A stretch of DNA of 64,000 nucleotides, from NCBI GenBank assembly GCA_905178155.1, contig CAJINV010000010.1, forward strand, positions 2,364,778-2,428,777, given 5' to 3'. The notes below the pieces were generated by a model. It was not told where the DNA came from and ran no database searches. It saw only the letters and a program-made list of their open reading frames with translations. Origin of the DNA: Amoebophrya sp. A120 (taxonomy: Eukaryota > Protista > Dinoflagellata). Position 1 is the stretch's first letter, and each line of letters begins with the position of its first letter. The position numbers and the translations under genes are program-made. Below are positions 1,750 through 64,000 of the stretch, one piece after another.

Positions 1750-4700
1750 TCTACTTCTTTTCCACGACCAGCAGCTCCCCTACAACAACCACTCTACCCA
1801 ACCTGCCTCCTCGCTCTGCACAAACCTTCTGTGAGTTCCCTATCAAAAGGAAAAGTGTCTGGGTCTGCAATGTTGCCGGGTTTGTCATGCATATTTTGCA
1901 TGACCCAGGATGTCTGTAATGCATGACCTAGCATCGCAGATTTTTAGAGGGCTTCCTGATCCCTAATCCGCATGACAAATGCCCTCCCCGCGTAGCACAA
2001 ACTAGACTCCTCTTGCTGATCATGCAATACAGCTTCTTTTAGAGTCCAGAGTTAGCATCACAAGCTCCAACCTTCCAGACACAGACATTTTTGTATTTGA
2101 TAGTCCCGTGCCTTTTCCAACACCGCGGCGGAGATGAAGCGGTTTTTGCGAGGGTATTAAAAGGAAACATCCCCCCTCTCCATATCGAAAAAGCGCGCTG
2201 TTCAAAATTTGTGATGCTGATTTGTGGCCACAAATCGAGTCTCCCTTGCAGAAGAGGAACGCCAGAGCTTCGGCCGCATTTCGCAGGCGATTTGTAATGC
2301 TGCTGCGCCAATGGGGCAGACAGCTGCCATGCTAAGTGCCTACCTCAAGCCACTCCTTTCCGGGCTTTGTATCTGCCTGCAGTGCTCTACTCCAAGACAA
2401 GACTGATTAGATTTGTGTACGCAAATACAGCATCACAGACTTCCCTTTCGATATGAGGAGGGGGGATTTTTCATTTTGATAGAGGGTAGAGCGTGTTCAG
2501 CGCGTTGTTCAGTAGGGTGCAGTCGTCCTCAGCTCGCTCTCTATCCTCTCTCTTCTCCGCCCGCTGAAGCCGGGACGCGTGGTGCCGTATCATGGTTCGC
2601 GACAGCGGCATCGTAGGTCGTGCATTACTAGTCTTTTGCGAAGGCGAAGAGGAAGACTTTGCCTCTGTCTGTGTCTGTCCCTGTAGAAGTCTACTACTTC
2701 TTGAGGAGGCTCCTGCAGATGTTGAAGTCGACGCTTTCGGCAGGAAGCCAGCCGCTGTCGGGGTAGTAGTAGTTCTCGAAACTCCTGTAGAAATTCCGGG
2801 TGAAAATAAAGGACTCTTTGACGACGGTGATGATGATGATGATGCTCCAGCACGACCAGAGGGAGAACGAACGCCACCAGCCGAGCTCCTCGATGAACTA
2901 CTTCTACCACTACTCAACGTCTCGGCCAAATCTGCGTCGGCTTCGACGAATCCGGACAGCAAGTCTTCCACTTCGTGGCACAATTCCGTCGAGAACAATT
3001 CCGGACAAGCAAGCTCCTGAACCCTGCGTTGGTTGAAAATCGACAGCATCCCAATCGGGATGGATCTATCCAAGGAAACAAGTGCTTTTTACAGTTACAC
3101 AGTTCTAGTGAATTCAGCATCTTCACAAAGTTGGTCTGCCTAGCAAACAAAAAAGCTTCAACTTGTATAAATGCGCGGCCTGTAAGGAAATGAAACACGC
3201 ACGAAATGACAATGCCAAGCATGTCCTGCATGACAGACGTTGTCTGTCTTACTTGTCTTGCATCAGAGTGTCGTGTACTAACTGTACACACTTTTTTCTT
3301 CGCATAGGATCCATCTAGGAAATACTGGAGTTCCAAGTTCCGGTAGTGCATGGAATCCACCGGTTGGGCGTAATGATCAGCAGATTTTGTACAAGAAGAA
3401 TCTACTTTTTTCTTGTTATTCGGAAACATGAAAGGTGACTCCAGGTTTGAGGCAAGTTTCAAATCGTTTCGCACACGGTCCGCCACACTGGAACCTGCAG
3501 CTCCTATCAAATGCAAAAATGTCTAGGTCTGGAAGAGTCGGGACTTATGATGCACATTTTGCATGACCCGTGAGGTCTGTGATGCTGGTGCTAGCATCAC
3601 AGATTTTTTGAGCGCTCCTTGATGCTAATTACGCATGAAGAATGACCTCTCCGCGTGCCAAGAACTGACTCCTCTTGCTGTTCATGCAACACAGATATTT
3701 TTAGAATCCGCAGACAGTATTACAAGTTCCATTCTTCCAGACCCAGACATATAAATATGCAATCCATAGCTCCGGTTGGAGTGCTACTCGCTGACGCGGC
3801 AGACCCCGCTCCTCGTTTATTTCCCGCGTGCCGACTGCCGCCCGCGGCGGTGGCAGGTGCAGGCGCTTTTCTCGAAGAAGAGGAGGAAGAAGTAGGTGTA
3901 GTTGGTCCCCATCCTGCATGCTGATGATGCCCTCCCGCATTGTTTGTCATCATCCCGGTATTTATTTTTCCTTTCTTTCCGAGACCTTGCTGTTGTTGAT
4001 CCTGATTCTTCGACTTGCACTTCGCAATCGCCGACACCATGGGGCTTGGCTCGTCTGCGCACACCGGACACCTGCACGACCCAATATTGGCCACAATACC
4101 TCTCTTCGCGTTTCGTGCTTCCCTTCGCATCTGCTCAAACCGTTTTCTCGCTTCCGGAACGGGGTTCACGCGGATGAACTGCCTCAACTGTGTCATCACC
4201 AACGCAACGGTAACGCTGCCGCTGGAAATCTGCCCAAGCACATACATCCAGAACATGGAGGAATCCTGATAGAACACGTGAAGATGGTTTGTAGGTTATA
4301 GTTTCTTGGGGATACGATATGATTGCCTGAGCGTTCCGTACAGTTCATTTCCTAACAAACAGATTGATACGACATGGCCAAAATGTTGACGAGGAGATCG
4401 AGATATTGATATATGTTGATATCAGTAGATCCTCCATTCGAAAATTACTCTCTACCCTGAACTCCGGAGGTTCGAAGCACTGCACAGTCATTTCGAAAAG
4501 GGCAATGACGGCGAGTGGATAGCGCGCGGCGTGCCGCACCAGCTCCAGATAGGGTTTTGCCAGCCGGCCGGCTAAAGACGTCGGTAATACTTCCTCGAGA
4601 AGGTCTCCAACAGCACTGGGGATGGTGCCGTTGCCCGCTTGATGCGCTGCGGATTTTGCTGCTGCCGCTGCCGCTGCTACACCCCCTCCTGAAACCTTCG

Positions 4701-7700
4701 TTGCTTGTTTTTTTGAACTACCCTTCGAAGCAGCTGTAGTTGACGAAGTAGAACTACCGCTTTTTTGTTCGGCTCCCGCCGTCGTGTTGATGTTCCTCCG
4801 GTGCAGTAACGCCCTGATCGCTTTCCTCTTTTCGCTGTCCGCGTCAAGACAACTGCTCCAGGTCTGCACAGCCTGGTCAACTAGTCTTTCCTTCGGGGTT
4901 TTTGTTCTAGTGGGATTTTGTACATTTGATGATGATAAAGAAGATGACGTTGCTCCACCTGTCGCGCCATTTTTGCCAGAGAAAGCGGTACTAGTCGTGG
5001 ACCCGTCTTCTTCTCGCACGGCCCCGGCTTGTTGCAGAAATCCCTTACTCTGCCCCCCATCGACGCACTCGTCTGGAACCATCCAGCATCACAAGAAAAA
5101 AGTGTTACGGTCTTTACACATTTGTTGTAAGAACTTCAGCAAAACGACAAATTTTCTCTGTGTGGGGCTTGTTCCGGCGCAACACAATGTGTACTTGACT
5201 GCAAGACTTTTTTCTACTTCCCATATCCAGAAGACCCGGCCGGTATCCGGATCGTGAAAATTTTTCGGCAAAATTTCCTTTTCCCCGTCTACCCCAAACA
5301 TGACGACCAGGAACATGAGTTTCGCAATGGTGTGGAGACCGGTAAGCATGACATTGTCGATTCTTTCGAATTCCTGTCTCGTAACGTCGTCCACGGCACC
5401 TTTCCATGCCAGAAACGCCAGCCTGTATCGCACAGAAAAAAGCGAGCAACGAGCGCACATTTGTAATGCAGCACTAAATTATATATAGTTTTGGCTATTC
5501 AAAAAATCATGCCTCCTGCTTCTAGCTTTTTTCTCTAGCATAGCGTGAACGACTTGCTGATCAGCTGGACCGCGATCTCTGACCACATGCTGTGCAGGAT
5601 GAAGAGCACTTGGAAGAGTTTGTATCGAATGTACAGATCGCGGTGCTCGACGAGCGACACGCAGGGCGGGGCTATCGTACGGGAAAATCCCCCCTCCCCA
5701 TACTGAAAAGGTTAAGCTATACTGTTGGGCATTTGTGACGCTGCTTTGTGGTCACAAATCGCGTCTGTCTTGCAAGAAGGCAAACCCAGAAGGCCCCCCG
5801 CATTATGCAGGCGGTTTGTGATGCTGTTGGGCCTACAGCATGGATTTTTGTCATGCTGAGCTCCTAGGCGAAAACCTCTCTACTACGGCTTGATATGGGC
5901 CTGTAGTCCTCTACTGCAAGACCAGGGCGATTTGTGTACGCAAATCCAGCATCAGAAATTTCGTTTTGATATAGCGAGGGGGGATGTTTCTCTTTGATAG
6001 GAGCGCACTGATCCACCGCGTGTTCCAGGAAATCCGAGCGGAGCATATAACCCGCTCAGGTGTTACAATTTCAAATCGGTTATCTTTACCATAGAATATT
6101 ATGGAAATCTGTGATGCACGAAGTGCAAGAGCTAACCTACTCGTCGCACAGGATTGCGCAAGACAACTTCTGGAGTGGTCCCAATCCGCACTAAGTAGAT
6201 CTGGCAAAATTTGTATTGCAGAAAGTCGAACGCTGTGCGAGTCTGTCATGCTCTTCATGCAAGACAAGGAAAATGCAGACTCTAAATGGTAACCGATTTG
6301 GGATTGTGACACTTGAGCAGGTCATAGAGCACGCGGAAACTACTGGTCCACGCACACACATTCGCTTCGATCTCCTCGTCCTCAGCATCGTCCTCTTCTG
6401 CGGCAATGGATTGCTGTTTCTCTGCAGTAGGTCTGTCTTGGTCCTCGACTGCGGTCGTGTTCTTCTCCTCCTTCTGCTTGCCCGTACTGAGATGAGAATC
6501 GGTAGAAGCTGGTGCGGCGTCGACATCCATTTGCTCGTTGTCCCCGACAAATGTTGAATCAATTTCCATTGCGTCTTTTATGGAAGAAGATGAACCAGCG
6601 ATGTTTACTGGTCTAGCAACGGCAGAAGAGGATTTGATACTCCCAGTAGTTCTTGTACCAGAAACATTATTGTCCTCCTTCCTACCGCCGCTCATTTCCA
6701 GCACCGTGCCGCCTCTGTTCACTACTTCAGCGATTGCCGTGAACGCGTGATCACCCCCTGCTCCACTGTGAACCAGGCCCCCACTCTCCACTTTCTTCAA
6801 GTCTTCTCTCTGTGGTAGGCACTGCTGCATCATTTTCAGCTCGCTTTTACTCACCTTCACGGGGAATTCCACCTTGTCCGCTATCAAATGCAAATATCCC
6901 TGGATGTCTGGACGATTGCGAGATTTGTCATGCTAGTCTGGCATGACTCTGCGCTCTGTATTGCGTGGCCACCAAGAGGTCCTCCAGCCTGTCATGCAAA
7001 AGCGCAAATTCTCCTGCGAAATACGCAGCACAAAAGAACGAAAAAACTTGTCATGCTTAGCGGCGCATTACAGGAGAGCACTGATTGTTCACGGACTTGC
7101 ATCACAAGTTTGTTCCAGACCCAGACATATTGGCAATGGATATCCGCTGGAATTGTCACAAACTTGTTCCGGGCCTCCATCACGGACCGAATCTGGTTGG
7201 CCGTGTAGCCCTCCAAGTCGAGGCGCGGCTCCAATTTTGGCGTCATTACCAAACGAAGAAATTCCTCCGCACCCTTTTGATCCACAAAGGATTTCTTCGG
7301 TCTGCTGACATTATTTCCGCGCTGCTGCTGCTGCTTGTCGTGGCGACTAGAATTAGTCGTACAACCGGCGGCAGAATTTTTAGGCTGCTTGCTGTTGTCT
7401 TTGTGCGGCCTGTTGCTTGTTTTCGGACCCTATCAAGCGCAAAAATGTCTGGCTTTGGAAGGTGGTAACTTGTAATGCTAGCTTTCCATAGCTAGGAAAT
7501 CTGTTTTGCATAACCAACAAAATAAGTCGCAGCCTCTTTTGTACATGCAAACACGCAGTTTCTCATGCGGATTGCCTATGAGAAAGCGTTCTGGAAAGTT
7601 GTCATGCTAAATTGCATTGCACACTGTTTCCATCATCCACATTTTAGCATCACAAGTTTCCAGACCCAGACACTTTTGCATTTGATAGACCCCGACCAGA

Positions 7701-8776
7701 TGCGGTCTTCGCCGCTAATGGACCTCGTCCACTCCGAACTTTAGCAGTAGTTATCAAAGTGAAAAATCCCCCCTCCCCATATCGGAAACGGAAGATGCGC
7801 GAACTTGTGATGCTGTATTTGAGTACACAAATCGACTTGTATTGCTAGAAGGCCAAGAGACGAAGCTGTGGCCTCAATTGCAGGCAATCTGTCATGCTGT
7901 TTCCCACTTCCAGTTGCCTCCTGTCATCCTGGAGCTGCAAGGCTTTCCCAGGCTAGACAGCACTACAGTCTGCATCTTTTGCCTTCTAGCATCACAAAGC
8001 TGATTTGTGGCCACAAATCTGCATCACAGATTTCCGTTTTGATATGGGGAGGGGGCATTTTTCATTGTAATAGTAGTTGTACCAGCACCACCGTAGCATG
8101 ATCCGACGCCGCTTGCAGTACTTCTTCTACCATCCTCCTCGTAGTGGTCCAATGGATCGAACCGCGCGCCTTCCTCTTCGTCCTTCATTCTCGCGTCTGC
8201 CTCGTCCGACGCAGAGGTAATAAAAATCCGCATGCCGGTGAGCAGCGTCGCGAATAAATACAGCTGATCCAGCATCATGGCCATGGACGCACCGCAGCAA
8301 ATCCACTCCGCGCACTTAAACGGAACATTGCCAATCGTGTCCCGCTCACTGGCCAGAAGTATGCTCAGAAAAGATTGCGCGCGCTTTTTCTTCGGGTTGG
8401 TGTGCTCGCTAGTAGATTCGTGCTCGTCATCATCGACGTTGTTCCCGATAGCAGTTTCTTCGTCTTCTTGCGCAATCGTGGTGCAACGTGTGCCACTACA
8501 CGTTGCTGCTCTAATTGCAGCAGCACTCCTGCTCCTTCCACTACCTTGCTCCACCGCGGTAGAAGAGGAACTACGTGTACTTGCAGAAGTTTCCTCATTA
8601 TCCGCAAAGATCAAATCTGCGACCTCCTGCGCCAAGGCGTGCCCGATTCGGTCTTCGTCGGTAACAAACCAACTATCGGCGTACTTTTCCTTAAGTTTTT
8701 CGTCTTCCTCAGTCAATTCGTAGTGAGGGAGAATAATCCGCTTCATTTCTGTATTCCGGATTTTCTCCTTGTCCAA
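1750..8776 (-). CDS. Multi-exon hypothetical protein(s); boundaries uncertain
   Basis: Minus-strand ORF pieces (8024-8776, 6992-7285, 6282-6893, 4345-5082, 3720-4277, 2471-3073) end at TIR elements or GT-AG introns. Removing element 6882-7142 plus one TSD joins ...FVTIPAD|KVEFPVK in frame. No family recognised; may be continuous with the gene upstream. Confidence 0.45.
1841..2102. mobile_element. Introner family A
   Basis: TIR TATCAAA..AAAA(G)TGTCTGGGTCTG / CAGAC(A)CAGACATTTTTGTATTTGATA; TSD TTCCC/GTCCC; close copy of 53120-53395. Confidence 0.88.
2155..2481. mobile_element. Introner family B
   Basis: TIR with CCCCCTC(T)CCATATC / GATATGAGGAGGGGGATTTTTC; TSD GAGGG. Confidence 0.88.
3505..3768. 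mobile_element. Introner family A
   Basis: Family A TIRs; TSD GCTCC. Confidence 0.88.
5673..5999. mobile_element. Introner family B
   Basis: Family B TIRs; TSD GGGGC/GGAGC. Confidence 0.85.
6882..7142. mobile_element. Introner family A
   Basis: TSD TCCGC; removal restores frame. Confidence 0.88.
7431..7687. mobile_element. Introner family A
   Basis: TSD GACCC. Confidence 0.88.
7752..8072. mobile_element. Introner family B
   Basis: TSD GTAGT; right end resembles the family E terminus. Confidence 0.88.
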
Positions 8777-8872: not shown

Positions 8873-11800
8873 TTAATTTTTTATGCCGAGGCTCTTTATC
8901 CCGGCCTTTTCCAATCGCTTCCCCACGACGCTGTCGTGGCAAAAGCTTCGCCAGTATCCAGGAAAAAAACTGTGTAAGTGTAACCCTGTAGGAAGAGCAG
9001 CATCACAAATTCGTTTTTCATTACACGGAAAACCTGTCATGCGCATCTAGTAAGTGGAAACACGTATGATAGTAGCCTATGACGCGCTTCCAGCATGACA
9101 AGTGTAACTGTTTTGCATTTTCTGCATCACAGATTTACACTCACACAGTTTTTTTTTTTGCATAGCCAGGATTTCTCGTTTATCACGTACTTCTGCCAGG
9201 AAGAAAATGTCCGCAGTATTCCGGTGAAAAATGCCTCCACCCCGTAAGTTGCAACCATTTGTAATGCGAAGTTTCGAAATGCACACTTTTTGTCTTGCAT
9301 GAAAGGACGATGGATCTTTCTGATGCAGATTCTAGTCGTATACAGCAGCCCTTGCATGACAAGCGCCGCCCTGGCTGGGTTTTTTTGCAATACAGATTTT
9401 TGCTATTCACGATTGAAAATCTGTGATGCTGATACATGCAAGACGGCGAATGTTTCCATTGTGAAGCAGGTTTGCAATACTTACAAATGCTCCCAAGTGC
9501 TGGGGTCGTGGGGGCATTTTCATTGTAATACGAGAGAACCGCGCGTCGGCGCCGCGGACACGATTTTCACCCTCCCAGCTTTCCATCGCCTTCCCCGTCT
9601 CCTGGTCTTTTATCCACTCCGGCGACAGAATCTCGCAGAAAACCTCCGTCCAGGGATCGATCAAAACTGTGTTGACAACGTTTGTCACGCTCTCTGTCAC
9701 ACTTGCGACCGGCGTAAAATTCTTCGCCAGCGGGTAGACGAGCTTGTGCGCGAAGAGGGGCAGAGCCAGCTTCCAGATCGTGTTGAACCGTTTCCTGTCA
9801 ATCCTTTTGTTCGAAAAGGGCACGCGGATTCTCTGCTGCTTCAAGGATTCAAAGTGCTTCTTCCGCCGCTGCCCGATAACGTGCGCGGAGAACTGCGCGC
9901 GGGAAAGCAGCAGGGAAGCCAATTTCGCCCACTTTTCTTCTCGAAGCGAGGTCGTGATCATTGGCGGTTTTTGTTCATGATGTGATGTACTAGTAGAAGT
10001 AGTACAACTTTGTGTAGAAGTTTTACCACTACTACTACTACTACTGCCCCCACCTCCCGCTGCTCCCCCCGCGAGTTCTATCCTGAGTAAAAACGTACCC
10101 ACACCAGAGTCAGGATGGGGATTTTGCAACACAAACCTAGGAGTTTTGTGAGTCACGCATGACAAGTTGCACTCTGCAGCGTAGTGCAGGTTAGCAAGTG
10201 CAGCCGCAGCACAGATTCATCTGCTCATCCTGTTCACAGCATCACAAATTCCAAAACACGACTGGAAATGGCTCTCATGGGGATGCGCATTACAAGTCTT
10301 CCTGTCTTTGCAAATCTGCATTACAACTCTGGTGTGGGTACGTTTTTACTCAGGATAAGTTCCGCGCTTTTCACCTCCACAGCGGAGAAGATTTTGTCCC
10401 GGAGGCGGGTGATGATCAGATCCTCTAGCGCTTCGTTCTCTTCGCAGGCGCCGTGCTTTTCGCTCGTGCACGCGTAGCATTTTGGAGGCCGCTGGTCTAT
10501 CCTGAGTAAAAACATACCCACACCAGAGTCAGGATGGGGAATCTGCTAGACAAATCAGCCAGCTTTGGTTGTTTGGCATGACAAGTTTGTCCGCGTAGTG
10601 TAGTGCTGCTTGAGCTAGTTTAGCAGCATTACAGATCTAGTATATCGTGCTGATTGGAGCATGACAAATTTCAAAACCGCATTAGAAAATGCTTCTCATG
10701 GGGCTCCGCATGAGAAACATTTTAAGCATGCAGAGTTGCATGACAACTATGGTGTGGGTACGTTTTTACTCAGGATATTGTCGGAGGTTTTGTTATTTTT
10801 CACCTGATACCGCACATCGTAGCAGGGAGGATAATTGATGAAACTGCTGCTTCTAGCGTTTCCGGTGCTCTGACAAGGAGTCGAGCCTGATCCTGAAACT
10901 GGACCACTTGCTGCAAGAACCGGATTACTATTTCCTGTCGCTCCATGACTGGTAGCAGCAGAAACCGATCCCGCTGCTGGTTCTCCGGATCCTGCTTTGC
11001 GCACTGAGGAGATCTTCAAAGGACATGCCGGTAGATCTACTTTTTCACCGGTGCAGCTGCCATGAACCGGAGTTGCAGAGCCCGAAAGTGAGTTCATCTC
11101 CTTCGGACACGGAGTCCCGGTCCACGACTTCGGCGAATCAATATCATCCCCAGAACAAACTAATCCGCAAGCACACGACGACGTCAACGGCGAAGAGCCG
11201 CAAGAAGTGCGGCCAGAAGTATCCCGCTGGCGATTTTCGCTCCACGCTTGCGTCAGAGAAGATCTTGTTGGAATCTTCTTGCTCCCACCAGCACAAGAAG
11301 ATAAACCTCCCCTGGAAGATGAGGTCGACGGCGAGGAAATAAATCTTCCCCCGACTTGCATCTTCCGGATCATACCCAATTGCCGGCGCACGTCCCTTGC
11401 CAAAAGCTGGAGCGCCAGTTTTTCCCACCGGACGCGGAACAGTTTGGCACTTCGCAGTCGTTTCGCACTGTCCTTCACAAATTGCTTCGCGACGAGCTTC
11501 TCCCAGGTGGCGATAAAAAGCTTCGATCTTTCCTGTCGCAACCTATTGAGAGGAAAAATCCCCCCTCCCCATATCGAACAGGTATGTTTCCGAAAATTTG
11601 TCTTGCTGATTTGAGACCACAAATCACGTCTGTCTTGCAAGAAGACAACTCCACAGGCTCTGCCGCATTATGCAGGCGGCTTGTGATGCTGTTGGGCCTA
11701 CAGCATAGACGTGTCTCATGCTAAGCGCCTAGGGCAAAAGCTCTCTACTCAGGCTTAGCAGGAGCCTGCTTTCCTCTACTGCAAGACAAACCTGATTTGT

Positions 11801-14800
11801 ATACGCAAATCCAGCATCAGAAACTTCCTTTTGATATGGGGAGGGGGGATTTTTCCTTGTGATACAACCGATCTAATTCCTCCAACATGGACTTTTTCTT
11901 TTCTTGCTCTTCCAACGCTGCTACGGCCTCCACTGCGTCTTCGAGCAAAGAGCGGGTCGTACTAATGCAGCTTGCTGCACTACAACTTTTGTTCCCTCCA
12001 CCTCCTCTGAGATGCCTCAACAGTATGCTGACGTCATTCCCGAAACAATCGCAGTCGCCGCTAATTTTCCGAAAAGCCTCCTCTAGAAGAGCGTGGGTGG
12101 AACGACCAGCGACTCTGCTATAATTTTGGCCGAGGACCCCTCCGCCGCTGTTGGTGGATGACGGAATATGAAAGTTATTGCCCATTGCAGATGTTGTTCC
12201 CTTCCTCTCATCGACCCAAGTCTGCGTGAAGATGTCGAAATCTGGGATGGCTGGCAAAACCCCATGCAAGAACCACTTCCGCTGCTCTTCCTCGGTCTTG
12301 ACGTCAAAAAGTTTGAAAATCTTTTCGCACGCCGTCGTCAGATCTTTCCCCTTCCGCTTCGACCGTCGCATGTTTTGTGCTTCCTTCAACTCGTTTAGGA
12401 AAGTTTCGCACTTCTTCGCGGGAGAATGTGTTGCGGTTGGGGATGAAGAGGGTGAAACAGGAGGTGCTCCACCTCCTGCGGTTGATGGAGACGCAGCAGG
12501 ACAAGAGGATGACCCTGGCACAACTTCTGCGCTTGGTGCAGATGCCTTTGCATCAACCGGTAGTCCTGCTCCCGCAGAGCTAGCCGCGAAGCTAGGAGAA
12601 AAAGAAGAGGACGCAGGTGGAGGAGGCTTCATTGCTTCGAAGATCAAACAGAGCTGCTGCGTCACGTATAATTCGGTGACTTCTCTGTCTAGGTCGGCAG
12701 CGCAAGAACCGGCGTTCTTGTCCTCTTTCAATTCTGTTTCTTGTACACCGTCAGGATCTACTGCCTCATTTATTTCCCCGGTCGTGGCGGGTGCAACTAG
12801 TTCATCTCTCGGCGTTTGCTCCATATCGACGTCGGGGGCAGCAGCTCCAGGTGCTGGCAGTGCACCTACTCGGCATACCGTAATAAGCGGCTAAAGTGGT
12901 AACTTTTTCCGAGCCACAAAACAAGAAAGCTATTGCTTCGCGCCGTGCGTGGTCCCCATGACAAAAGCAGAAATGAAAGCCCTTGTACCAGGGCGAGGCG
13001 CTCCCTTTCTATTGATTCTTGCGGAAAAAAGCCAACAAAGCTTCAAAGCGCTCCCTTTGCGGAAAAAAGCCAAAGCTTCATCAAAGGACTAGGTTCCTAT
13101 TTGCGCGCTCAAATAGGATATCTATTTCTATGCTTTTCGAAAATGCAAAAAGATAAGCTCCCTAATGGCCGCGCCATTAGGGAACTTATGCTTCAGAGTT
13201 TTTGCGTTTCCACTTGCGCATCATCGAGTGAAAAAAACCCAAAATCTCAAGCCATGAGTTCCCTAATTGCACGTGCCAATAGCGAACTTATGTTAATGTT
13301 TTTCGAAAATGAAAAGTCAAAAGTGTCCTAATCGCGCGTGCCATTAGAGAACTTATGCCTCAGAATTTTTGCATTTGCGCATCATCGTCATCGAGTGAAT
13401 AAAACGCAAAATCTCAAGTACGGACGCGCGAGGTTTTTTCCCCAGGGAAAAAGCAGAAGGAGAGAAATCCTGCAGCACTTAGCTCGGGAAGCCGGAGAAT
13501 GCAGAAGCTAGCAGTCGTGCGGAAAAAATTTCATTCGCTTGCTCTTTTTCTGTGGGCCGTACCAACTTAGCCGCTAATTACGGTTTTTCGAGTACTTCAC
13601 CTCTCGCCGTTTGTTCCATATCGACGTCGGCGGCAGCAGCTCCAGGTGCTGGCAGTGCCACCGGAGCAGCAGGGCCTTCATCACGATCCCTCTGTTGATC
13701 ATCCGCCTCTACGACCTCCATTGGATCATTTCCACCTGGCACAACTGCTACGTCTTCCGTCCCCGCGAGTACTCTGCTCCCTTCGCAATCGCCCTGCTGA
13801 GTGGAGGCAGTTCGCGCAGTGCCTTGCGCGGCTTCTAGTACCAGACCAGCTTCCACGCTCCGTCTATTAACGAGCTCCTCGTCTCTAGCTCTACTCGCAT
13901 GGTTCGCCTGCTCAGCTGGTTCCTCCCTTTCACTTTCCTCCCCCGCAGAACATGCGCCCTGCTCAAGTGCACAAGAAGCACCTGTTTCTCCTCCACAGTT
14001 CCGATTGATTTCGCTGAGAGAGGTATCGTGAGAAAAAAGTGCTTCACTGTAAGCTAAGGATTTTGCAAGCTTTGCATGACAAAGTCGCATGACAAAGTCG
14101 TTGCACATGGCAAAGAAAACGTGCCATGCGTACTTCCCAATGGAAAACGTGTTGAAAAAGCCAATGTCTTGTATGTGTAGCAACACAAACGCGCTTGCGT
14201 TCCATTCTATGCATCACAAGTTTACAGTGAAACAGTTTTTTCTTTGCATAAGAGGAAGAATTCGAGCCGCCCAAGGTCGTAGAGGAAGAAGTTTGACTTG
14301 CGTCAGCTGTTCTTTTAGCAGGATCGTTTAAAAAAGGCCGCGGGGGCCCCTGATCAGGGTCGGACGAAGAAGAGCTGCAGCCAGGATGATGAATGCAACT
14401 AGCGGGAAGAACATCAACTGAGAACAGGTCGTGGTTGCTGTTGTTGTTGCCGGATTTACTATTTTCACCTTTTTCCGGACCGGAATTTAGTACCATGTCA
14501 ACACTCGGAACAACAGATGAACTGCTATCCAGCATCGCGACATCAGTCGACGACGAAGAAGACCCTGAGAAGGAAGTTTGTGTTTGGTCCATCAACACGC
14601 CAGGTGATGCTGATGTTGTGCTGTCAGCTGGATCATGAACTTCTTCTTGTTGCTGTCGCGCAACGACGCCTTCCTCCTTGCGAAGAGGAAGTAGACTGGG
14701 AAGTAGTAGCTCTGACAGCGTTCTTTGTGACGCTGCCTCCGCTTTTCCTGTTTGCTTTTTATCCTCCTCCTCGCCATCATCTTCATCCAGCAGTTCCAAC

Positions 14801-26286: not shown

Positions 26287-26402
26287 GTACGCTAGTACAC
26301 CTCGTGATCCCAATAAACATGAAATAAATAGAAGATCGTTTCTACCGGGCTGCCACAGATAATCCGGCAGCGTAACTCTTTCTGCTGGTGGTAGAGCTAG
26401 TG

Positions 26403-48816: not shown

Positions 48817-49719
48817 TCAACAGGAACAGTTTTGTTTGCCTAAATTCCCCTCATTCGTCGGACTTGGTGCTCTTACCCCCAACGTCTGCCCCGCGGAACC
48901 ACCACCGCCGGGGGTGGTGTTTGGTAGCAGTTCCGGCTCGGACAAAATCGACTCTGCGAGTTCCGCGAAGGCTTTCGAGACTTGCAAATTTGTTCTCGCG
49001 GACGTTTCCAAGTACGCCATGGCGTGCGAATTCGCGAACTCCTCCGCTTCCTCCCTGGACACTTGCCTTTCCTCGAGTAAGTCCACTTTGTTCCCGACTA
49101 ACAATAGTTTCGCTTTCTCGTGGGTGGAGTGCGCCCGGACCTCCTGTATCCACTTTGGCAAGTTGTCGAAAGTCTCCTTTTATTAACTGTAAAAATGTCT
49201 GGGTCTGGAAGATTCTGACACTTGTTATGCACGTTTTGCATGAGCCCTGATGTCTGTGATGCATGCCCTAGCATCACAGAATTTTTAAGAGCTTCTTGAT
49301 GCCTATTCCGCATGACAAATGCCCTCTCCGCGTAGCAAAAACTACATTTCTTTTGGTACTCGTGCAATACAGATTCTTCTGGAATCCACATGCAGCATCA
49401 CAAGTTGCATTCTTCCAGACCCAGACACTTTTACATTTGATACCTTTTGGGTGGTGTCGAACGCGAGTATGACCCCCTGCGCACCGCGGTAGTAACTGCT
49501 CGTCATGGTCCGAAACCGCTCCTGTCCGGCGGTGTCCCACACGGCGAGCTTAACCTGTTTTTGCTGCAGGGGCAGGGTTTTCGTGCGGAAGTCCACGCCA
49601 ATGGTCGCCAGCTGCCGCTCGTTAAACATGTCGTCGCAGAAACGGAGCATCAAAGAAGATTTCCCGACGCCAGAATCGCCGACGAGAAGAATTTTGAACA
49701 AATGATCGTAGGGTTGCAT
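48817..49719 (-). CDS. RAB18: Rab18-like small GTPase, 211 aa, exons 49444-49719 and 48817-49176
   Basis: [49 protein letters not shown] and C-terminal CSC. Intron 49177-49443 is a family A element; the splice gives FDTTQK|ETFDNLPKW. Confidence 0.93.
49181..49442. mobile_element. Introner family A in RAB18
   Basis: TSD CCTTT; TSD plus TIR create a GT...AG intron at 49177-49443. Confidence 0.92.
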
Positions 49720-53700: not shown

Positions 53701-56700
53701 GCAGAGAGGTGGAAAGGAGGGCAAGCGAGAGGTGGGCAGAGGTGCCGAGAGGTTGCGCGAATAAGGCGGGACCTCTTGCGCACCCTCTCGGCGACCTCCC
53801 GGCCACCTCTGTAGCCCTCTGCCCGCGAGTATAGCCCGACTATTAGCGGGGACCTCCGAGAGAGGTCAAAAAGAGGGGCCGCGAGAGGGCCCAAAAAACC
53901 CGAATCCGCCCGGCACGCGGCCGATTTTCCTGGGGCTTTGTCATCGTGCAGGCCCACACCCTCTCGCGCCATCACCTCGCGCACCCTCTCGCGCACCCTC
54001 CCGCGTCAACCTCCCGCGCGTGATCAAAAAAGAACAGCGCGGCCCCCGTTCTGCTTCGGTAGGCACCTACGCCGAGGCGGTTTCGCTTCGCCCCCAAGCT
54101 TCGCTGCAGCTGCTCCCTGCGCATAGCGCCGGAAGGCGCGGGAAGCGCGCAGGAGGCCCAGCGGGCTGAGATGGCGCAACCCGCGCCAGTATTTCCCTCG
54201 ACCTATCACGTCGCGCGCAAAGGCATGGCGCTGTGGCCCGGTCCGCAAATAGTCCTGCCCCGCCACAACAGCCGCTCGCCCCGGCGTCAGCCGGGGCATG
54301 GCTGGTAGTTGTAATGCAAATGCGCATGCTGCTGAGAATGTTTCTCATGCGGAGCCCCATGCCGAGCATTTTCTACTTGTGTTTCGGAATTTGTGATGTT
54401 CCAATCAGCATGCCGCGCTAGCTCTGTGATGCTGCTGAACTAGCTGAACAGGATTACACTACGAGGCTCAACTTGTCATGCGCAACAGCCATAGTGTGTT
54501 GATTTGTCTAGCAGACTCCCCAATTTGGCTACGGGGTGTTTAAGTTTATGTACTGGATGAGACCAAAATAAGGCACAGAGAAACTATGGGGTGGGGACAT
54601 TCTTACGCAAGATATCACGTTGGTGTTGTTCACAGTGGTGCCGTTGCTGGCGAACACCGCCGCCTCGATCGTTTTCACGAAATCCATCAAAGACATCGGA
54701 TCGGAATTCCCGAGATTGAACACCTCCTGCACGACCTCCGTATCACAGGAAAAAAGCGCTACAGTTACACATTGTGTTGCAAGACCGGCAACAGAGACAA
54801 CCTTTTTCATGCAGGAAATGCTTGGGAGCCTCGTTTCCTTCCTGTTTCCCCTTATGATCTTCGCATTACAAGTTCTCTCTGCCACACAGAGAAAATTTGT
54901 GATGCACAAACTCCAACAAATATGTAACTGTAACACTTTTTTCTCGTGATACTCCGGGTCGGTTGTACAGTATTGCACGTGCTCGTCCTCGGGCGGGATT
55001 CTCATGTTTTCAAACATCGGCGTGGGCAAGGGCCCGCACCAGTTTTCCGACTTCCGCGTGATGTACTCCAAACTCCGGTAAATCCCGTCGACAATGTCAT
55101 CGACGTAGGTGAAGTCGCGGCTCGCTTTCCCCTTGTGAAAAATCTGGATCGGGTTTTTCTTCATTTTCGGGTTCAAAATTTTGTCCACGAAGTACCAACT
55201 GCAAAAATGTCTGGGTCTGGAAGATTGCCATGTTTGTCGTGCATATTTTGCATAACCCGCGATGCCTGTAATGCGTGACCTAGCATCACAGATTTTTAAA
55301 GAGCCTTCTGATGCGTATTCCGCATGAGAAACGCCCACTCCGAGTAGCACAAACTGAACTCGTCTTGCTGGTCAGGCAATACAGATTTTTTTTTACCTTC
55401 CAGAGACAGCATCACAAGTTGCAACCTTCCAGACCCAGACACTTTTGCATTTGATACGAAGTCAAAGTACGCCATGTCCGGCCGCCCATAGGTGCCGTAC
55501 ACGGTGAAAAACCGCAGGCCGACGGACTGGATCTCGTACAAATTCGCGTAGGTTTTCGCGGTCAGTTCATTCATCCGCTTCGTCGTCGCGTAGAGCGACG
55601 CCGGGCTGTCCACCGGGTCGGACTCGGCAAACGGGACCTTCGTGTTTTTCCCGTAGACCGAAGAAGAAGAGGCGTAGACCAAGAGGATTTCCTGCAAATG
55701 CCGCTCCTCCTCCTCCCACTCCTCTTCCACCCGTTTAAGTTCCCCAGTCCTCTTCGACATTTTTTCCTTCTTGTTCACGATCATGCGTGGCTCTCTCCGC
55801 TTGTTCTCCTCCCGAATCGCCTCCAGCAAGTCCATATCAAATGTGAAAATCTCTGGGTCTGGAAGATGATTGCGAGATTTGTCATGCATATCCCGGGTCA
55901 CGCAAATGGCGTCTGATGCAGGCAAAAGCATCACAGGTTTTGAGCACGCCTCATGATGCCTGTCCCGCATGAGAAACTTCCTACTTGCGTGCCAAGAAGT
56001 GGACAGCTTTTGGCGCTCATGCAACGCAAATTTTTGTGTGTTCCAGAGTTTGCATCACAAGTTTGTACTCTTCCAGACCCAGACATATTTGCATTTGATA
56101 GTCCACAAAACACTCCACATTGTTCCGCACGTATTCCTGCGGTGCCTCCAAACTGTACCTCACCCCCGCCTCCGTATGCATTGCAAAAGGATCGATTGCA
56201 CTCGGAGAAATTGCAGTTCCGCATGACAAATAAGCTTGTTCTGTTTCTGATTCTGTACCTAATTCTCCATGAGAAGTTTCGACTTTTCCTTCTGGGAAAA
56301 CTTGTGGTCATGGAACTTGTACTAGTACAACTACAATCTTCCCTTTGCAATGCATATTGCGCAGCCAGGTGCAAAACGTGCGTCACGTTGAAGGCCTGGA
56401 AGATGTCCTTCAAAAATTTCCGGTCGCACACATCCCCATCGTACAGCGGGAACGTCTTGGTCAGGTGAAACGTTTTATTCAAAACCTCCGTGCCCGGCTT
56501 CTGCTCGCTAATCCGCTTGCCCCGGTGGCGAATGTTTTTCCCCGCCTGTTTCGCGGCCGCTTTCGCTGCGTTGATCGCTTCTGGCTCTTTCTCCTTGCTC
56601 TTCCGCTTTCCCTCGATGTGGTCCAGCTGCCGCTGCAGCGCGCTCACCCGGGCTATCAAAGTGAAAAAAGCCTCCACCCCATACGGAAAACGAAATTTGT

Positions 56701-57113
56701 GATGCTGTATTTCATTCAGTACACAAATCGACTTGCATTGCCGGAAGGCCAAGGGCCGCAGTCGTGGACTCGCTTGCAGGCAATTTGTCATGCTGTTTCC
56801 CACTTCCAGCTGCCTCCGGTCATGCTGAAGATGCAAGGCTTTCCCACGCCACCCAGCACTAGAGTCCGCATCTTTATTTCCCTTCTAGCATGACAAAGCT
56901 GATTTGTGGTCACAAATCAGCATCACAAATTTCCGTTTTAATATGGGGATTTTTCACTTTGATACGGGCTTTTTTCAGGTCCACGTCGTAGTAGGAGTTG
57001 AAAGAGTCCAAACCGACCACCTTATAGTGGTTCTCGATAGCAAGTTTCATGGTGTGGTACCCCACGAAGCCGGCCGCGCCGGTGATCAGAACGACCGGGG
57101 CTTGGAGCACCAT
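50730..57113 (-). CDS. GAE: UDP-glucuronate 4-epimerase (extended SDR), interrupted by 13 TIR elements
   Basis: TGAAGFVG, YYDVDLKKAR, HLAAQ|AGVRYSLE, YASSSSVYG, PASLYATTK, GLRFFTVYGTYGRPDMAY, RDFTYVDDIV, FNLGN, GDVLQTYADL and LGYQP...FVEWY. Likely upstream TM exon(s) near 57300-57640; TACTAAC (57114-57120) and an AG at 57101 suggest a canonical intron there. Confidence 0.92.
51140..51403. mobile_element. Introner family A in GAE
   Basis: TSD AGCTT. Confidence 0.9.
51529..51842. mobile_element. Introner family B in GAE
   Basis: TSD CAAAT; TYADL|KKSKKLLGY. Confidence 0.9.
51895..52200. mobile_element. Introner family C in GAE
   Basis: TSD TCACG/TCGCG. Confidence 0.85.
52225..52433. mobile_element. 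Introner family D in GAE
   Basis: TSD TTTCC; near-identical inverted copy at 61820-62028. Confidence 0.9.
52465..52637. mobile_element. Introner family F-like in GAE
   Basis: TIR core AAAGCATCGTAC / GTACGATGCTTT; TSD AGATC. Confidence 0.85.
52681..52947. mobile_element. Introner family A in GAE
   Basis: TSD TTCTT. Confidence 0.9.
53120..53395. mobile_element. Introner family A in GAE
   Basis: TSD GTCCG/GTCCT; left end TGT. Confidence 0.9.
53460..54614. mobile_element. Introner family C in GAE, expanded by a nested insertion
   Basis: TSD TCACG at 53455-53459 and 54615-54619; family C body resumes at 54306. Confidence 0.88.
53487..54305 (+). mobile_element. Non-autonomous Helitron-like element (819 bp)
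   Basis: Inserted between A and T with no TSD; AT-rich 5' end TTACTATCTATTATATTCATGCGAAAGT; 3' hairpin GCCCCGGC-GTCA-GCCGGGGC (54278-54297) then CTGG (CTRR); internal GAGAGGT repeats. Confidence 0.75.
54741..54951. mobile_element. Introner family D (variant) in GAE
   Basis: TSD CTCCG; the 216-nt insertion is in frame and stop-free. Confidence 0.88.
55193..55456. mobile_element. Introner family A in GAE
   Basis: TSD CGAAG; DMAYFDF|VDKIL. Confidence 0.9.
55835..56100. mobile_element. Introner family A in GAE
   Basis: TSD GTCCA; CFVD|LLEA; no AG at the 3' junction in any TSD register. Confidence 0.9.
56175..56356. mobile_element. Introner family F-like in GAE
   Basis: TIR TATGCATTGCAAA(A)GG; decayed TSD; HLAAQ|AGVRY. 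Confidence 0.85.
56654..56964. mobile_element. Introner family B in GAE
   Basis: TSD CGGGC; LKKAR|VSAL. Confidence 0.9.
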
Positions 57114-59718: not shown

Positions 59719-62700
59719 TCATACAAGAATTCCAAATGGGACGAGTAAATCATGTAGTGATAAACGTAAACCTAAACTGTCTTCATTATCTCCCCTCTGA
59801 ACTACATCAAGCTCAACAAGAGGTTCCTTATCCCATGTAGGTGGTCGAAGTGGTGTTCCCCCCGGCGTTATACCAGGACGAACTCGAGCCTGATTTCTCA
59901 TGCGCCCGATCGCCCGAGTTGTACCAGGTGCGGCTCTTCCCCTCCCACCTGCTGTCCGGCTCGGCGCGGTTGGCACTGCTGTTCAATCGAATGCAAACAT
60001 GTCGGGGTCAGTAAACAAGTTGCGAGACTTGTCATGCGAATTTTCCATGACCCATGAGGTGTGGAGTGCGGGACCCAGCATGACAGATTCTTTGAGGTCT
60101 CCATCAAGCCTATACTGCATGAAAAAAAAGCTCCCTCTCGACCTGGTCAGAAGGGAACAACTTTTGGCCCTCATGCAAGACAGATTTTTGCATGATCCAG
60201 ATTTAGCATGACAAGTTGCAATCTTCCAGACCCAGACATGTTTGCAATCCATATGTCCCATCGCCGCTCTCGGGTGTCGTCATCGCGGGACGCGGACCCC
60301 CACTTCTGCCCGGACGAAGGGTAGTTGTAGTCTGTTATATTTTTCGACGACGTGTTGTCACTTTGTCATGCACAAAACAGCTAGAGAAAGTTGTAGATGA
60401 GAAATTCACCATGCATGCCACACACAGAATCAAGGCGTAGAACAGGTTGTCTACTTCCTTTATCAAATAAACCAGAAATAAAGTTCACCATCTACGAAAA
60501 ATCACAACAAGCAGTAGTACCCCGAGAAGCGTAACTGGCCTCCCGATCCCCACCCCGCCTGTCGTACCGGCTGCTGGTGCCGTACTCCCGGAATTTGCTC
60601 TCTCCCGTACCGGACCGGTGGTAATCCTTGCCGTAAGACCCATATCCCGTGTTGTTGTCTTTCCCGCCCCGACCCGCGTTCGGCGCCGGCGGCCCCATGG
60701 GGTTGTTTTCGAAGCCCGGTCCGAAGTAGCGCCAAGTGGTTACGTCGTTTCCGCGCCCGCGGCCGCCGGGTTCGTCCATCAGCGCAACGCCCTTCTGGTG
60801 CAGCTCGTGGCGAATCGCGTCGGCTTCCTTGTAGTTGCCGACCTGTGAATGTCATCGTCAATGTGATGGTGGAAATTACATTTTATACAAACTTGCTCAG
60901 CAATACTGCAGAATGGAATTTGTCGTGCTGGTTCTTTAGCTAATAGGAAAAATAAGATGTGTGGTCATGCACGCAATGACTGCATCACTAAATACCCGTC
61001 TCGCTTCGTTCCGCTTCTCCACCAGCCTTTCGATCTCGGTGGGCGTTGGGCACCCCGCCGGCAAACCTTCATTTTGTTCCTCAGTCTGGCTTATGCATTG
61101 CAAATATGTCTGCGTCTGGGTCTGGAAAGTTGTCATGCTAATGTCCGAATGTTCCGCAAACTGTGTTGCGCCGCTGCGCATGACAAGTGTCTGAGCAGCT
61201 ATGTCTAGCGCTAAGCGCATGACAAATAGCCTCTTTGCATGACAAGCAAGTGGCGTTGTAGCGCAACAAGCATCACAGACTTTTCTATATTACCGGCCAA
61301 GCATGAAAACCTTGTATTCTTCCAGACCCAGACATTTTTGCAATCCATATGGCTGCCGCCGGTTCGATCCAACAACCCGTGCTCCCTTACCGGTGGCCGG
61401 TACGGCTTGCTCTGCGGGACCACATTGTCCCCGTTATTTTGGTGATTTTCCTTTTCCGGACCTCCACTCTGCCCCCGGGTAGAAATGGTATTCTCGTCCG
61501 CAATCGTTGAGGGCGTCGAGGATTTATCAAATGCAAAAATGTCTGGGTCTGGAAGATTCCGAGATTTGTCATGCAGTTTTTCCAAGCTCCACTAAGTCTG
61601 GAATGCAGGGCCTAGCATCACAGGATCTGCAGCCCCTTTGTGATGCCTGTTCTGCATGAGAAATGCCCCCTCAGCATGGCCAGAATTGAGCACCTTTTGC
61701 AAGTCACGCAACACAGATTTTTGTATGATGCGCAACATGCATCACAAGTTGCATCCTTCCAGACCCAGACTACATTTTTGCATTTGATAGGATTCTGCGT
61801 GCTCCAACTTCGACGGCGATATGCAAGAAAAAAACTGTGTAAGTGTAAATTTGTGTTGCAGAGGATGCAACAGAGTTACACCTGTCATGCCAGACAGCCA
61901 TGAAGTCCTATTTTCATGTGTGTTTTCCCTTACAAACCATGCATGACAGGTTTTCTCTGTCATGGAGAGCAAATTTGTGATGCTGTTCCTCAAAGAAAGT
62001 TACACTTACACACTTTTTTTCCTGGATAGGCGAAGCAAACAGCACACTGGCGCTGTTGCCGCTGGCTGCGTTGAGGCTGGTACTTCCAGAGCCATTGGTC
62101 GACAGACTTGTGTTCATCATATTACCTGGAACACCTCCAACTCCGAGAGCAGAAGTCGTCTGCACGGAGGTTCTATCCAATGCAAAAATGTCTGGGTCTG
62201 GAAGATTGCGAGATTTGTCATGCTGATCTGGCATGGCCCTTAAATCTGTATTGCGTGGCCACAAACAGCCTCTCTCGCCTGTCATGCAAAAACGCAGTTT
62301 CTCATGCGGAATACGCAGCACAGAAGCACGAAGCAACTTGTCATGCTTGGCGGCGCATTACACTGCATTTGCTTTTGACTGACTTGCATCACAAGTTTCC
62401 AGACCCAGACATTTTTGCATTTCATAGGTTCCGCTCGACGGCTGTCCCTGCGCGAAAGTCTATCCTGAGTAAAAACGTACCCACGCCAGAGTTGTAATGC
62501 AGATTTGCAAAGACAGGAAGACTTGTAATGCGCATCCCCATGAGAGCCATTTCCAATCGTGTTTTGGAATTTGTGATGCTGTGAACAGAGTGAGCAGATG
62601 AATCTGTGACGCGGCTGCACTTGCTAACCAGCACTACACTGCGGAGTGCAATTTGTCATGCGTGACTCCCAAAACTCCTAGGTTTGTGTTGCAAAATCCC

Positions 62701-64000
62701 CATCCTGACTCTGGTGTGGGGACGTTTTTACTCAGGATAAAGTCATCGGTGTTCCTTGTGACATCGGGTAAAGGTTGTTCACACTCTGGAAAGCGCCAAA
62801 GTTGGGGAACAACCCGGAAGTGCTGCCCATAGCGCCGCCGTTGCCGTTAGATGTACCAGAGGCAGGGCCTGCCATGGGGGTCGCAAACGGGGCCGGGAAA
62901 GATGACCCATTGGTTATTCCCATGCCACCTGGAACAAAACCACCGCCCATCATCTGGCTGGTGCTGTCCATCGGCAACCCCTGCGCGTTCAGAGGCGGCA
63001 GAGGCACCGGTGGTAACAGCGGCATCGGGGGAAGCGCTGGGACCTGCGGTATCGTACAACTACCGGGTTGAAAGCTCGCGGCATTCACGTTGAAGTTCGT
63101 TGCGGAGAGCTGCTGTTGTTGACCTTGTTGTTGTCCGGATGTTGATATCCTGTGCAAAAGTATCGCGCTCGTAGTAATTGCAGTCACGCATTACAAGTTT
63201 TTTTCTCGAGGTAACTCCGCATTACAAATTTTATTTCTCATGCTGAGAGGATGAGGACTTGTCATGCATTTATACGAGTACGATACTTATTTTGCAGTTC
63301 ATAGTTGAAAGTAGACCGTTTGTCGTGGTAACCGAGCTACCGACAGACATGGTTGGCTGCAGCAGAATCCCGGATCCCAAGCCGCTGGTGAGGGAGCTGT
63401 TGCAGCTGTTCAGCGTGTATCCACTGCAAATATGTCTGGGTCTGGGAGATTGCGAGATTTGTCATGCCCGTCTGGCATGACTCTCAACTCTGTATTGCAT
63501 GCATGCGAAGCGCTCCTCTTGTCTGTCATGCAAAAACGCAGTTTCTGATGCGGAGTGCGCAACTCTGAAGGACGCATAAACTTGTCATCTGGGCAGCGCA
63601 TTACTGTGTGCTCACTACTCCCTTCTTTGCATCACAACTTTCCAGACCCAGAGATATTTGCAATGCATAGCGTGTTTTGGAGCAACTGCATCCCGGGTGT
63701 CGGATTGTTGTTCATCTGCGACGCGGAATATAGATTGCAAAAATGTCTGGGTTTGGAAGAATGCAAGATTGTCATGCTTGTCTGGCATGACTCGAGAATC
63801 TGTATTGCATAGGCACGAAAAGGCCCTCTTGCCTGTCATGCAAAAACGCAGTTTGCCATGCGGAATACGTAAGACATGGCAGCCAAGAAATTTGTCATGC
63901 ATAGCTGCGTATTGCAGTGCGTCCAACCATCATTCACTTTTAGCATTACAAGTTTCCAGACCCAGACATATTTGCACTTGATACGGAACTAGACAACTGC
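59719..64000 (-). CDS. Low-complexity protein with CysRS anticodon-binding-like domain and PAM2-like motif; 5' end beyond window
   Basis: EIERLVEKRNEARRV|GNYKEADAIRHELHQKGVALMD...TTWR (about 60730-61050), NFNVNAASFQP (63062-63097) and an RG-rich tail. Contains 9 TIR elements. Confidence 0.6.
59985..60253. mobile_element. Introner family A
   Basis: TSD TGTTC/TGTCC. Confidence 0.82.
61092..61349. mobile_element. Introner family A
   Basis: TSD TGGCT. Confidence 0.88.
61525..61789. mobile_element. Introner family A
   Basis: TSD GGATT. Confidence 0.88.
61820..62028. mobile_element. Introner family D
   Basis: TSD GGCGA. Confidence 0.9.
62174..62426. mobile_element. Introner family A
   Basis: TSD GGTTC. 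Confidence 0.88.
62461..62739. mobile_element. Introner family C
   Basis: TSD AAGTC. Confidence 0.9.
63146..63303. mobile_element. Introner family F
   Basis: TSD GTTGA; similar to 28101-28245. Confidence 0.85.
63418..63669. mobile_element. Introner family A
   Basis: TSD GCGTG. Confidence 0.88.
63729..63983. mobile_element. Introner family A
   Basis: TSD CGGAA. Confidence 0.88.

Follow-up and report, generated by a model that had tools for sequence, protein, structure and literature searches.

How can coding sequence carry dozens of short transposon-like insertions when almost none of them ends in the GT and AG of an ordinary intron? The question is raised by a stretch of 64,000 nucleotides of Amoebophrya sp. 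A120 (contig CAJINV010000010.1, positions 2,364,778 to 2,428,777; hereafter the window, meaning the whole stretch analysed), in which strict and relaxed scans, self-BLAST and gaps in gene models and proteins together revealed 66 short elements that end in inverted repeats and are flanked by 5-bp direct repeats. These elements belong to the already published A120 introner system, known genome-wide with RNA sequencing (RNA-seq) since 2021. Farhat et al. 2021 (PMC7789003) described inverted repeats made of TAT, seven variable bases and at least 3 A, with direct repeats of 3-5 nt at the borders, and counted 29,850 repeated introns, or 17% of the assembly. The anatomy in the window equals that description, and what is reported here is therefore a piece of the published system, as a first-pass annotation of the window had rightly suspected. 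The same paper called the splice sites variable and without clear splice signature, and stated the position of the border to be unknown.

We propose, with a probability of roughly 0.55, that a relaxed spliceosome, helped by a hairpin between the two ends, removes each introner together with one repeat copy, cutting one base before TAT. Each element would arise by transposition with a 5-bp target duplication, the enzyme being supplied in trans. The donor would read N-U-A, which corresponds to the GTA donor of this genome with the requirement for the first G relaxed; the branch point may be the constrained A of the closing ATA, at a distance of 7 nt from the acceptor; and the acceptor would be set by its distance from the base of the hairpin, making AG dispensable. 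With these signals in palindromic ends, splicing could take place in either orientation and restore the protein exactly.

The elements have a uniform anatomy. A strict scan that required TAT...ATA, complementarity at 11 or more of 20 terminal bases and an exact 5-bp repeat on both sides returned 45 elements in the window and 0-1 in each of 10 shuffles. In the tallies that follow, which cover 65 of the 66 elements unless another n is given, TAT and ATA were both present in 57, and the flanking repeat was exact in 50, with 62 different repeat sequences among the 65. The first-pass annotation had announced about 62 elements of 145-335 bp with such ends and such a variable 5-bp repeat; the ends and the repeat held up, whereas the count rose to 66, two elements fell below 145 bp and one reached 1155 bp. 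Apart from this last one, all lie within 117-334 bp, and the summed length of 17,846 bp amounts to 27.9% of the window. BLAST grouped the first 63 elements into seven multi-copy families (24, 9, 9, 9, 3, 2 and 2 members) and five singles. A position table of the inverted repeats showed TAT at 1-3 and A at positions 11-13 in 57-61 of 63 elements. On folding, 64 of the 64 elements shorter than 400 bp paired end to end, with a median of 24 pairs among the terminal 30 bases. Short, non-coding, bounded by terminal inverted repeats and flanked by a duplication of fixed length and variable sequence, the elements have the build of miniature inverted-repeat transposable elements (MITEs). The window gave no match in an Rfam search, nor did the family A end in a viral sequence collection. 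A codon model assigned a strand to the surroundings of 52 elements, always minus, and made no call for 13.

Only three elements can be read as GT-AG or GC-AG in any register, in agreement with the earlier idea of non-autonomous elements removed as non-GT-AG introns, and a preference for AG was absent in every register. Deletion of an element plus 5 nt placed 57 of 63 junctions inside long minus-strand frames. Deletion of an element plus 2 or 8 nt did equally well (58/63 and 56/63; remaining lengths 34-51 of 63), so that the frame test fixes the removal length only modulo 3. Proteins settle it: removal of the element plus 5 nt matches database proteins at 26 of 26 junctions, and nine other removal lengths fail at 8 of 8 junctions tested. 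The restoration of frame claimed earlier was thereby borne out. The 26 junctions lie in three host genes:

50733..57113 (-), host gene of the epimerase-family protein P0001, 706 aa, named Amoebophrya sp. A120; interrupted by 13 introners (13/13 junctions matched)
29430..32965 (-), host gene of the RPAP2-domain protein P0121, 1017 aa, Amoebophrya sp. A120; 2 introner introns (2/2)
1797..8746 (-), host gene of the unnamed protein P0123, 1303 aa; 11 introner introns (11/11)

In single-exon queries, window exons were 99% (P0001) and 100% (P0121) identical to A120-named database proteins, and P0123 tiles the window exons from 1797 to 8746. Pfam named 4 of 32 exon pieces: two Ras-family pieces split by element 49181, RPAP2 and epimerase. 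Of the gene labels proposed at first, Rab18, kinesin and methyltransferase were not confirmed. A protein search with the exon 37160-37627 gave no match.

Sequencing contigs point the same way. We used assembled contigs of an RNA-like run (X4, its RNA status presumed) and of a DNA-like run (X5, one sample); 15 of 922 contig joints are listed, so rare empty sites in X5 are possible. Two raw RNA runs, X8 (20 reads) and X9 (4 reads), gave mostly partial alignments and were left out. One X4 contig joins 49175 to 49443 with no letter between, a 267-nt skip that equals the 262 bp of element 49181 plus one 5-bp repeat. In a second X4 contig, the 108 letters between two aligned pieces are what remains after removal of elements 40287 and 40611, one repeat each, and one intron; this length puts the donor of the intron on GT, the only GT among 13 neighbouring offsets. 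In X5, unique exon runs into element ends in 8 of 8 listed contigs at a depth of 22-32, and two contigs span a whole element. The outcomes named in advance as fatal, mRNAs that retain the elements or DNA that lacks them, were not seen among the joints listed: X4 contigs skip elements and X5 contigs contain them. Removal at the RNA level, with the elements staying in DNA, is supported by these data. Removed in the X4 contigs and at all 26 protein junctions, and with 3 of 65 readable as GT-AG or GC-AG, the elements behave as A120 introners do.

Excision from DNA in a developmental stage, comparable to the internal eliminated sequences (IESs) of ciliates, would explain the contigs if X4 were a sample of rearranged DNA. 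Inverted ends and a single retained repeat copy are also the footprint of DNA excision; the RNA status of X4 is presumed, and X5 is one sample. The X4 contig, however, also lacks an ordinary GT-AG intron, and ciliate-type IESs are absent from expressed DNA, whereas the X5 contigs (one DNA-like run) carry the elements. A constraint directed by transcription, as described below, would not be expected for excision from double-stranded DNA. Finally, 66,565 A120 introns were validated by RNA-seq against a genome that contains them (PMC7789003). We regard such excision as very improbable. That the elements stay in the transcripts of dead genes is more improbable still, to the point of being negligible: many elements would bring stops or a frame shift if kept, but X4 contigs are spliced, long frames are intact after removal, and a conserved enzyme motif is restored across its junction.

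Where in the 5-bp repeat the cut falls can be read from junctions at which the two repeat copies differ and the difference alters the protein (n=6). The upstream base was kept by the proteins at position 1 (element 53120), position 3 (5426, 51895, 56175) and position 4 (31450), and the downstream base by P0123 at position 5 (1841). For element 56175, Q results from the upstream base at position 3; 102 of 120 homologues have Q there, and the motif is missing from the remaining 18. Among all possible registers only a cut between repeat positions 4 and 5 fits these six junctions. We therefore infer a single register, read from sequence comparison, in which the cut lies one base before TAT and the intron would be [repeat base 5]-TAT...ATA-[repeat bases 1-4], starting N-T-A-T with the invariant T at +2. 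The five ordinary donors in the window begin GTA followed by A, C or T, and T is second in all nine leading non-canonical motifs of A120 in Table S4 of PMC7789003.

For a larger set, a 24-base end pattern fetched 127 loci (L001-L127, 576 kb, one assembly by contig prefix) with 438 distinct elements (detector scoring without terminal triplets). In a search for empty sites, none of the 127 loci overlapped window exons. The polarity set of 390 comprises 326 strand-assigned loci elements and 64 window elements; left out were 112 of the 438 loci elements (no strand call or short flank) and the window elements 9217 (degenerate repeat) and 52465 (a later find). In the proposed register, T stands at +2 in 390 of 390 and A at +3 in 388 of 390, the base before TAT is G in 28%, and GT-AG occurs in 11 of 389 elements with 7.5 expected by chance. 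The elements thus lack the GT or GC donor and AG acceptor of U2-type introns, yet offer U+2 and A+3 if the register holds.

A spliceosome whose cut slides within the repeat, or sits at another fixed place such as at TAT or two bases before it, would turn the single register into an effect of annotation. Fifty of the 65 repeats are exact, so that any register gives the same mRNA; repeat mismatches spread evenly over positions 1-5 (17, 19, 14, 20, 25); the published sites are variable with the border unknown (PMC7789003); and each of the two tight bounds comes from one junction (31450, 1841). Against this, one register accommodates all 6 informative junctions, a terminal T that never varies is what a cut fixed relative to it predicts, and the direction of mismatches flips between positions 1-4 and 5, which argues weakly in the same sense (single mismatches, 24:7 vs 4:7, p=0.024; all mismatches, 38:18 vs 8:9, p=0.15). 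We consider a sliding or displaced cut unlikely.

Some further tests were dropped. A stop-codon test for the register found one hit among 40 framed loci elements (L068), but it had been read in a wrong frame; in the true frame the change is silent, and the hit was discarded. A Poisson comparison was set aside, its mean having been picked with the data already in view. An association between the bases at +1 and -1 (p=0.0006) was no stronger than that between other neighbouring repeat bases. Two trends in the window are taken up with the counter-evidence below.

The elements of the window and the one ordinary intron removed alongside them are listed here; family letters A-H are labels of this analysis, "strict scan" marks elements returned by that scan, and repeat positions are given in transcript orientation.

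1841..2102 (-), introner family A; repeat copies differ at position 5, P0123 keeps downstream base
2155..2481 (-), introner family B; strict scan; P0123 junction
3067..3306 (-), introner with C-like ends; strict scan; P0123 junction
3505..3768 (-), introner family A; strict scan; P0123 junction
5087..5225 (-), short introner with C-like ends, 3' triplet ATG; P0123 junction
5426..5542 (-), shortest introner, 117 bp; repeat differs at position 3, P0123 keeps upstream base
5673..5999 (-), introner family B; silent difference between repeat copies at position 3; P0123 junction
6046..6326 (-), introner, single copy in window; strict scan; P0123 junction
6882..7142 (-), introner family A, reverse orientation; strict scan; P0123 junction
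7431..7687 (-), introner family A, reverse orientation; strict scan; P0123 junction
7752..8072 (-), introner family B; strict scan; P0123 junction
8955..9164 (-), introner family C; strict scan
9217..9530 (-), introner family E; degenerate flanking repeat, 3 differences
10079..10357 (-), introner family D; strict scan
10498..10777 (-), introner family D; repeat copies differ at position 4; no matching protein found
11544..11864 (-), introner family B; strict scan
14024..14250 (-), introner family C; strict scan
16887..17208 (-), introner family B, reverse orientation; strict scan
19958..20277 (-), introner family E; strict scan
20389..20641 (-), introner family A; strict scan
23170..23389 (-), introner family C; strict scan
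28101..28245 (-), introner family F; strict scan
28317..28574 (-), introner family A; strict scan
30505..30770 (-), introner family A, in the RPAP2-domain gene; strict scan
31450..31658 (-), introner family C; repeat mismatch at position 4, P0121 keeps upstream base
36843..37156 (-), introner family G; strict scan
37633..37940 (-), introner family G; repeat mismatch at position 4
38000..38295 (-), introner family D; strict scan
38351..38604 (-), introner family A; strict scan
38634..38843 (-), introner family C, ending in ATG
39211..39492 (-), introner family D, ending in ATG; repeat copies differ at position 3
39528..39789 (-), introner family A, ending in ATG; an X4 contig piece begins at 39790
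40105..40228 (-), ordinary GT-AG intron, GTATTC...CAG; missing, like two introners, from one X4 contig
40287..40550 (-), introner family A; strict scan; X4 contig
40611..40890 (-), introner family D; strict scan; X4 contig
41988..42304 (-), introner family B; strict scan
43847..44109 (-), introner family A; strict scan
44180..44456 (-), introner family D; strict scan
44699..45032 (-), introner family B; silent difference between repeat copies at position 4
45432..45714 (-), introner family D, ending in ACA; silent difference between repeat copies at position 5
45902..46213 (-), introner family E; strict scan
46270..46522 (-), introner family A, reverse orientation; strict scan
47267..47482 (-), introner family H; silent difference between repeat copies at position 3
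47595..47810 (-), introner family C; strict scan
49181..49442 (-), introner family A, splits the Ras-family domain; exact 267-nt skip in X4 contig; end-to-end hairpin z -8.1
51140..51403 (-), introner family A; strict scan
51529..51842 (-), introner family B; strict scan
51895..52200 (-), introner family D; repeat mismatch at position 3, P0001 keeps upstream base
52225..52433 (-), introner family C; strict scan
52465..52637 (-), introner with F-like ends; located via a gap in P0001
52681..52947 (-), introner family A; strict scan
53120..53395 (-), introner family A, ending in ACA; repeat copies differ at position 1, P0001 keeps upstream base
53460..54614 (-), introner family D, 1155 bp through a nested insert of ~815 bp; removed whole in P0001
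54741..54951 (-), introner family C; strict scan
55193..55456 (-), introner family A, 3' triplet GTA
55835..56100 (-), introner family A; strict scan
56175..56356 (-), introner within the conserved epimerase motif; repeat mismatches at positions 3 and 5
56654..56964 (-), introner family B; strict scan
59985..60253 (-), introner family A, ending in ATT; silent difference between repeat copies at position 2
61092..61349 (-), introner family A; strict scan
61525..61789 (-), introner family A; strict scan
61820..62028 (-), introner family C; strict scan
62174..62426 (-), introner family A, reverse orientation; strict scan
62461..62739 (-), introner family D; strict scan
63146..63303 (-), introner family F; strict scan
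63418..63669 (-), introner family A, reverse orientation; strict scan
63729..63983 (-), introner family A, reverse orientation; strict scan

The two ends of these palindromes are not equally conserved. In the window alone, the 5' triplet was intact in 65 of 65 elements and the 3' triplet changed in 8, an asymmetry of the whole triplet that was not replicated in the loci (10 vs 9 among the 236 best-called). A split by position, chosen after the triplet result, showed the first T changed in 0 elements and its mirror A in 13 (n=390, p=0.00024), and was significant at this position in the loci alone (0 vs 8, p=0.008). The third T behaved in the opposite way, with 12 changes vs 2 for its mirror A (n=390, p=0.013; loci alone 12 vs 1). 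The A at -7 from the proposed acceptor was kept in 388 of 390. Inside the elements, transcript-strand changes A>G and T>C were nearly equal (36.5 and 32.2 per 1000), which together with the opposite directions at positions 1 and 3 argues against strand-biased mutation. In both cases one partner is fixed while the other drifts, which argues against pairing alone as the cause of the asymmetry. The element ends are thus under strand-specific constraint, and independence of GT-AG does not mean independence of sequence. By family, insertion in the two orientations is near even (82:66, 14:19, 19:19, 24:29). Among the donor bases of spliceosomal introns U+2 is the most constant, and some protists have short distances from branch point to acceptor.

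A stricter form of the proposal would have the spliceosome work entirely without the first G and the terminal AG, reading only U+2 and A+3, branching at the A of the closing ATA and ligating exactly 7 nt downstream whatever the sequence there; one palindromic end would then serve both orientations, and any exon would be a harmless landing site and a shelter for nested elements. We put this forward tentatively and think it somewhat more apt to fail than to hold.

The same introners could instead be cut from RNA by a hairpin-guided cut-and-ligate pathway without spliceosome, similar to that of Euglena, whose enzyme reads the conserved ends. End-to-end pairing in 64 of 64 elements, with a z of -8.1 for 49181, fits this, and so does the nested insert of ~815 bp that is no barrier to removal in P0001. 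AG is not preferred in any register, no U1 RNA was detected in A120 (PMC7789003), and Euglena introns use paired end motifs at fixed spacing (PMC12501133). The constrained bases, however, are not pairing partners, since the first T and the mirror A of the third position are fixed and their partners drift; the fixed bases fall at +2 and +3 of the proposed register, as in the ordinary donors of this genome; and the spliceosome is reported to be nearly complete, with U2, U4, U5, U6 and 83 of 89 spliceosomal proteins (PMC7789003). Such a pathway therefore appears doubtful to us.

Several observations weigh against removal by a relaxed spliceosome at one register. A YTRAY branch motif was not enriched, occurring in 28 of 65 stretches of the last 60 nt and in 30 of 65 on the opposite strand. 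The X4 contigs are RNA by presumption, and the contig joints listed are 15 of 922. The register derives from database proteins, with no junction of unequal repeats in the listed reads or contigs, and its tight bounds from one junction each, as said above; at 31450 the proposed donor is GT, which an aligner may favour whatever the read says, and the T-second pattern of Table S4 (PMC7789003) may share this bias. A low frequency of T before TAT in the window (5/65, p=0.02) was not replicated in the loci (61/326), and neither was a clustering of repeat mismatches at positions 3-5. At the ends, the second position changed 2 vs 5 times (n=390, not significant), the window alone showed no change of the third T, the signal coming from the loci, and positions 4-6 were without asymmetry (88/96, 91/98, 61/62).

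Compared with the A120 introners of PMC7789003, the window elements do not differ in kind: TAT ends, direct repeats, hairpin, a length of about 240 nt, non-GT-AG borders and lack of an internal transposase are the same, and the single register and the asymmetry between the 5' and 3' ends are what is added here. The A120 families of Gozashti et al. 2025 (PMC12130899) measure about 148, 208, 252-261, 278, 305 and 320 bp, similar to lengths in the window; the A120 rows (19 of 58), mostly classed as 'TIR DNA, Unknown' (TIR, terminal inverted repeat), were compared by length and not by sequence. GT donors make up about 26-28% of the large families there, close to the 28% of G before TAT, and the automated duplication lengths range from 2 to 5, whereas the window elements have 5. 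Introners of Aureococcus and Micromonas (PMC7789003, PMC11282704) are likewise MITE-like, with inverted ends and target duplications that become exact introns, but they use canonical motifs, one carried by the element and one from the duplication, whereas only 3 of 65 window elements can be read as GT/GC-AG. The nonconventional introns of Euglena (PMC12501133, PMC11282704) share paired ends, non-GT-AG borders, junction repeats and coexistence with ordinary introns. Their signature is a paired CAG/CTG a few bases inside and a purine opening the next exon, whereas the window elements show TAT...ATA, no purine preference and constrained bases that are not partners. In Fritillaria borealis (PMC13326754), non-GT-AG introns likewise occur, there dominating the genome and handled by an altered spliceosome; they have defined motifs, and the U2AF subunits are duplicated. 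A fixed register with base-specific polarity was not found in a literature search that ran without figures S19-S25 of PMC7789003 and without Roy et al. 2023 (Curr Biol), either of which could already show the register. The fixed register and the single-base constraint make the question of splicing directly testable; if the proposal is right, it would reveal the extent to which the end rules of a spliceosome can be loosened, and would account for the spread of one transposon group into tens of thousands of positions in exons.

The first-pass annotation had called for a search for longer elements with the same ends that carry a transposase. Such a search of the 127 loci (576 kb) found apparent nested inserts and no transposase for TAT...ATA elements. 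Pairing of ends over longer distances gave versions of 457-2459 bp; in those examined, both ends match short family A copies and the middle is unrelated, the arrangement expected of nested inserts. Three family A elements with intact ends and exact repeats (L025:627-1598, L049:765-1461 and L018:3862-4492) are apparently lengthened in this way. The nested insert of element 53460-54614 (window 53492-54305, ~815 bp) is GC-rich and begins with TC; a GC hairpin closely precedes its 3' end, and the bases on either side of the insert are A and T. Its X5 depth at variant positions is ~20-900 vs ~25 for unique sequence. From these features we take it to resemble a non-autonomous Helitron. The one candidate for an autonomous element, L040:476-2934, was rejected, as it looks like a family A element with a single-copy insert of 2.2 kb. 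The 363-aa frame of this insert gave no Pfam, PDB or Atlas match and a predicted fold with a confidence (pLDDT) of 44. With a helical start and a low-complexity tail it may, as speculation, be a retroelement fragment; such inserts could also explain introners with Copia/Gypsy-like frames, of which one family has been reported (PMC12130899).

In the loci, changes inside the elements away from family consensus go from A/T to G/C at 0.044 per site and in the opposite direction at 0.028, an excess that would be unusual if mutational. Repeats in the loci start at codon phase 2 more often than at 0 or 1 (105, 62 and 69 of 236), whereas the window is even (23, 19, 21). An intron of P0123 at about 4272-4435 (approximate borders) has a donor-like start GTATCAA that resembles an introner end and closes with CAG; it is possibly an old introner turned canonical.

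Elsewhere in the window, a 751-bp intergenic element (25544-26294) has 60-bp inverted ends of 95% identity that do not start with TAT and an internal 77-bp duplication, and no copy of it was found in the 127 loci. Very GC-rich stretches at 1-1180 and 33200-35100 have open frames on either strand; one piece was run against Pfam, without a match, and the stretches are possibly other repeats. Between two genes, a tandem 157-bp duplication with internal palindromes (13096-13418) is 76% identical. A 66-bp coding-like segment occurs twice in neighbouring minus-strand frames (12798-12863 and 13593-13658), suggesting paralogous genes.

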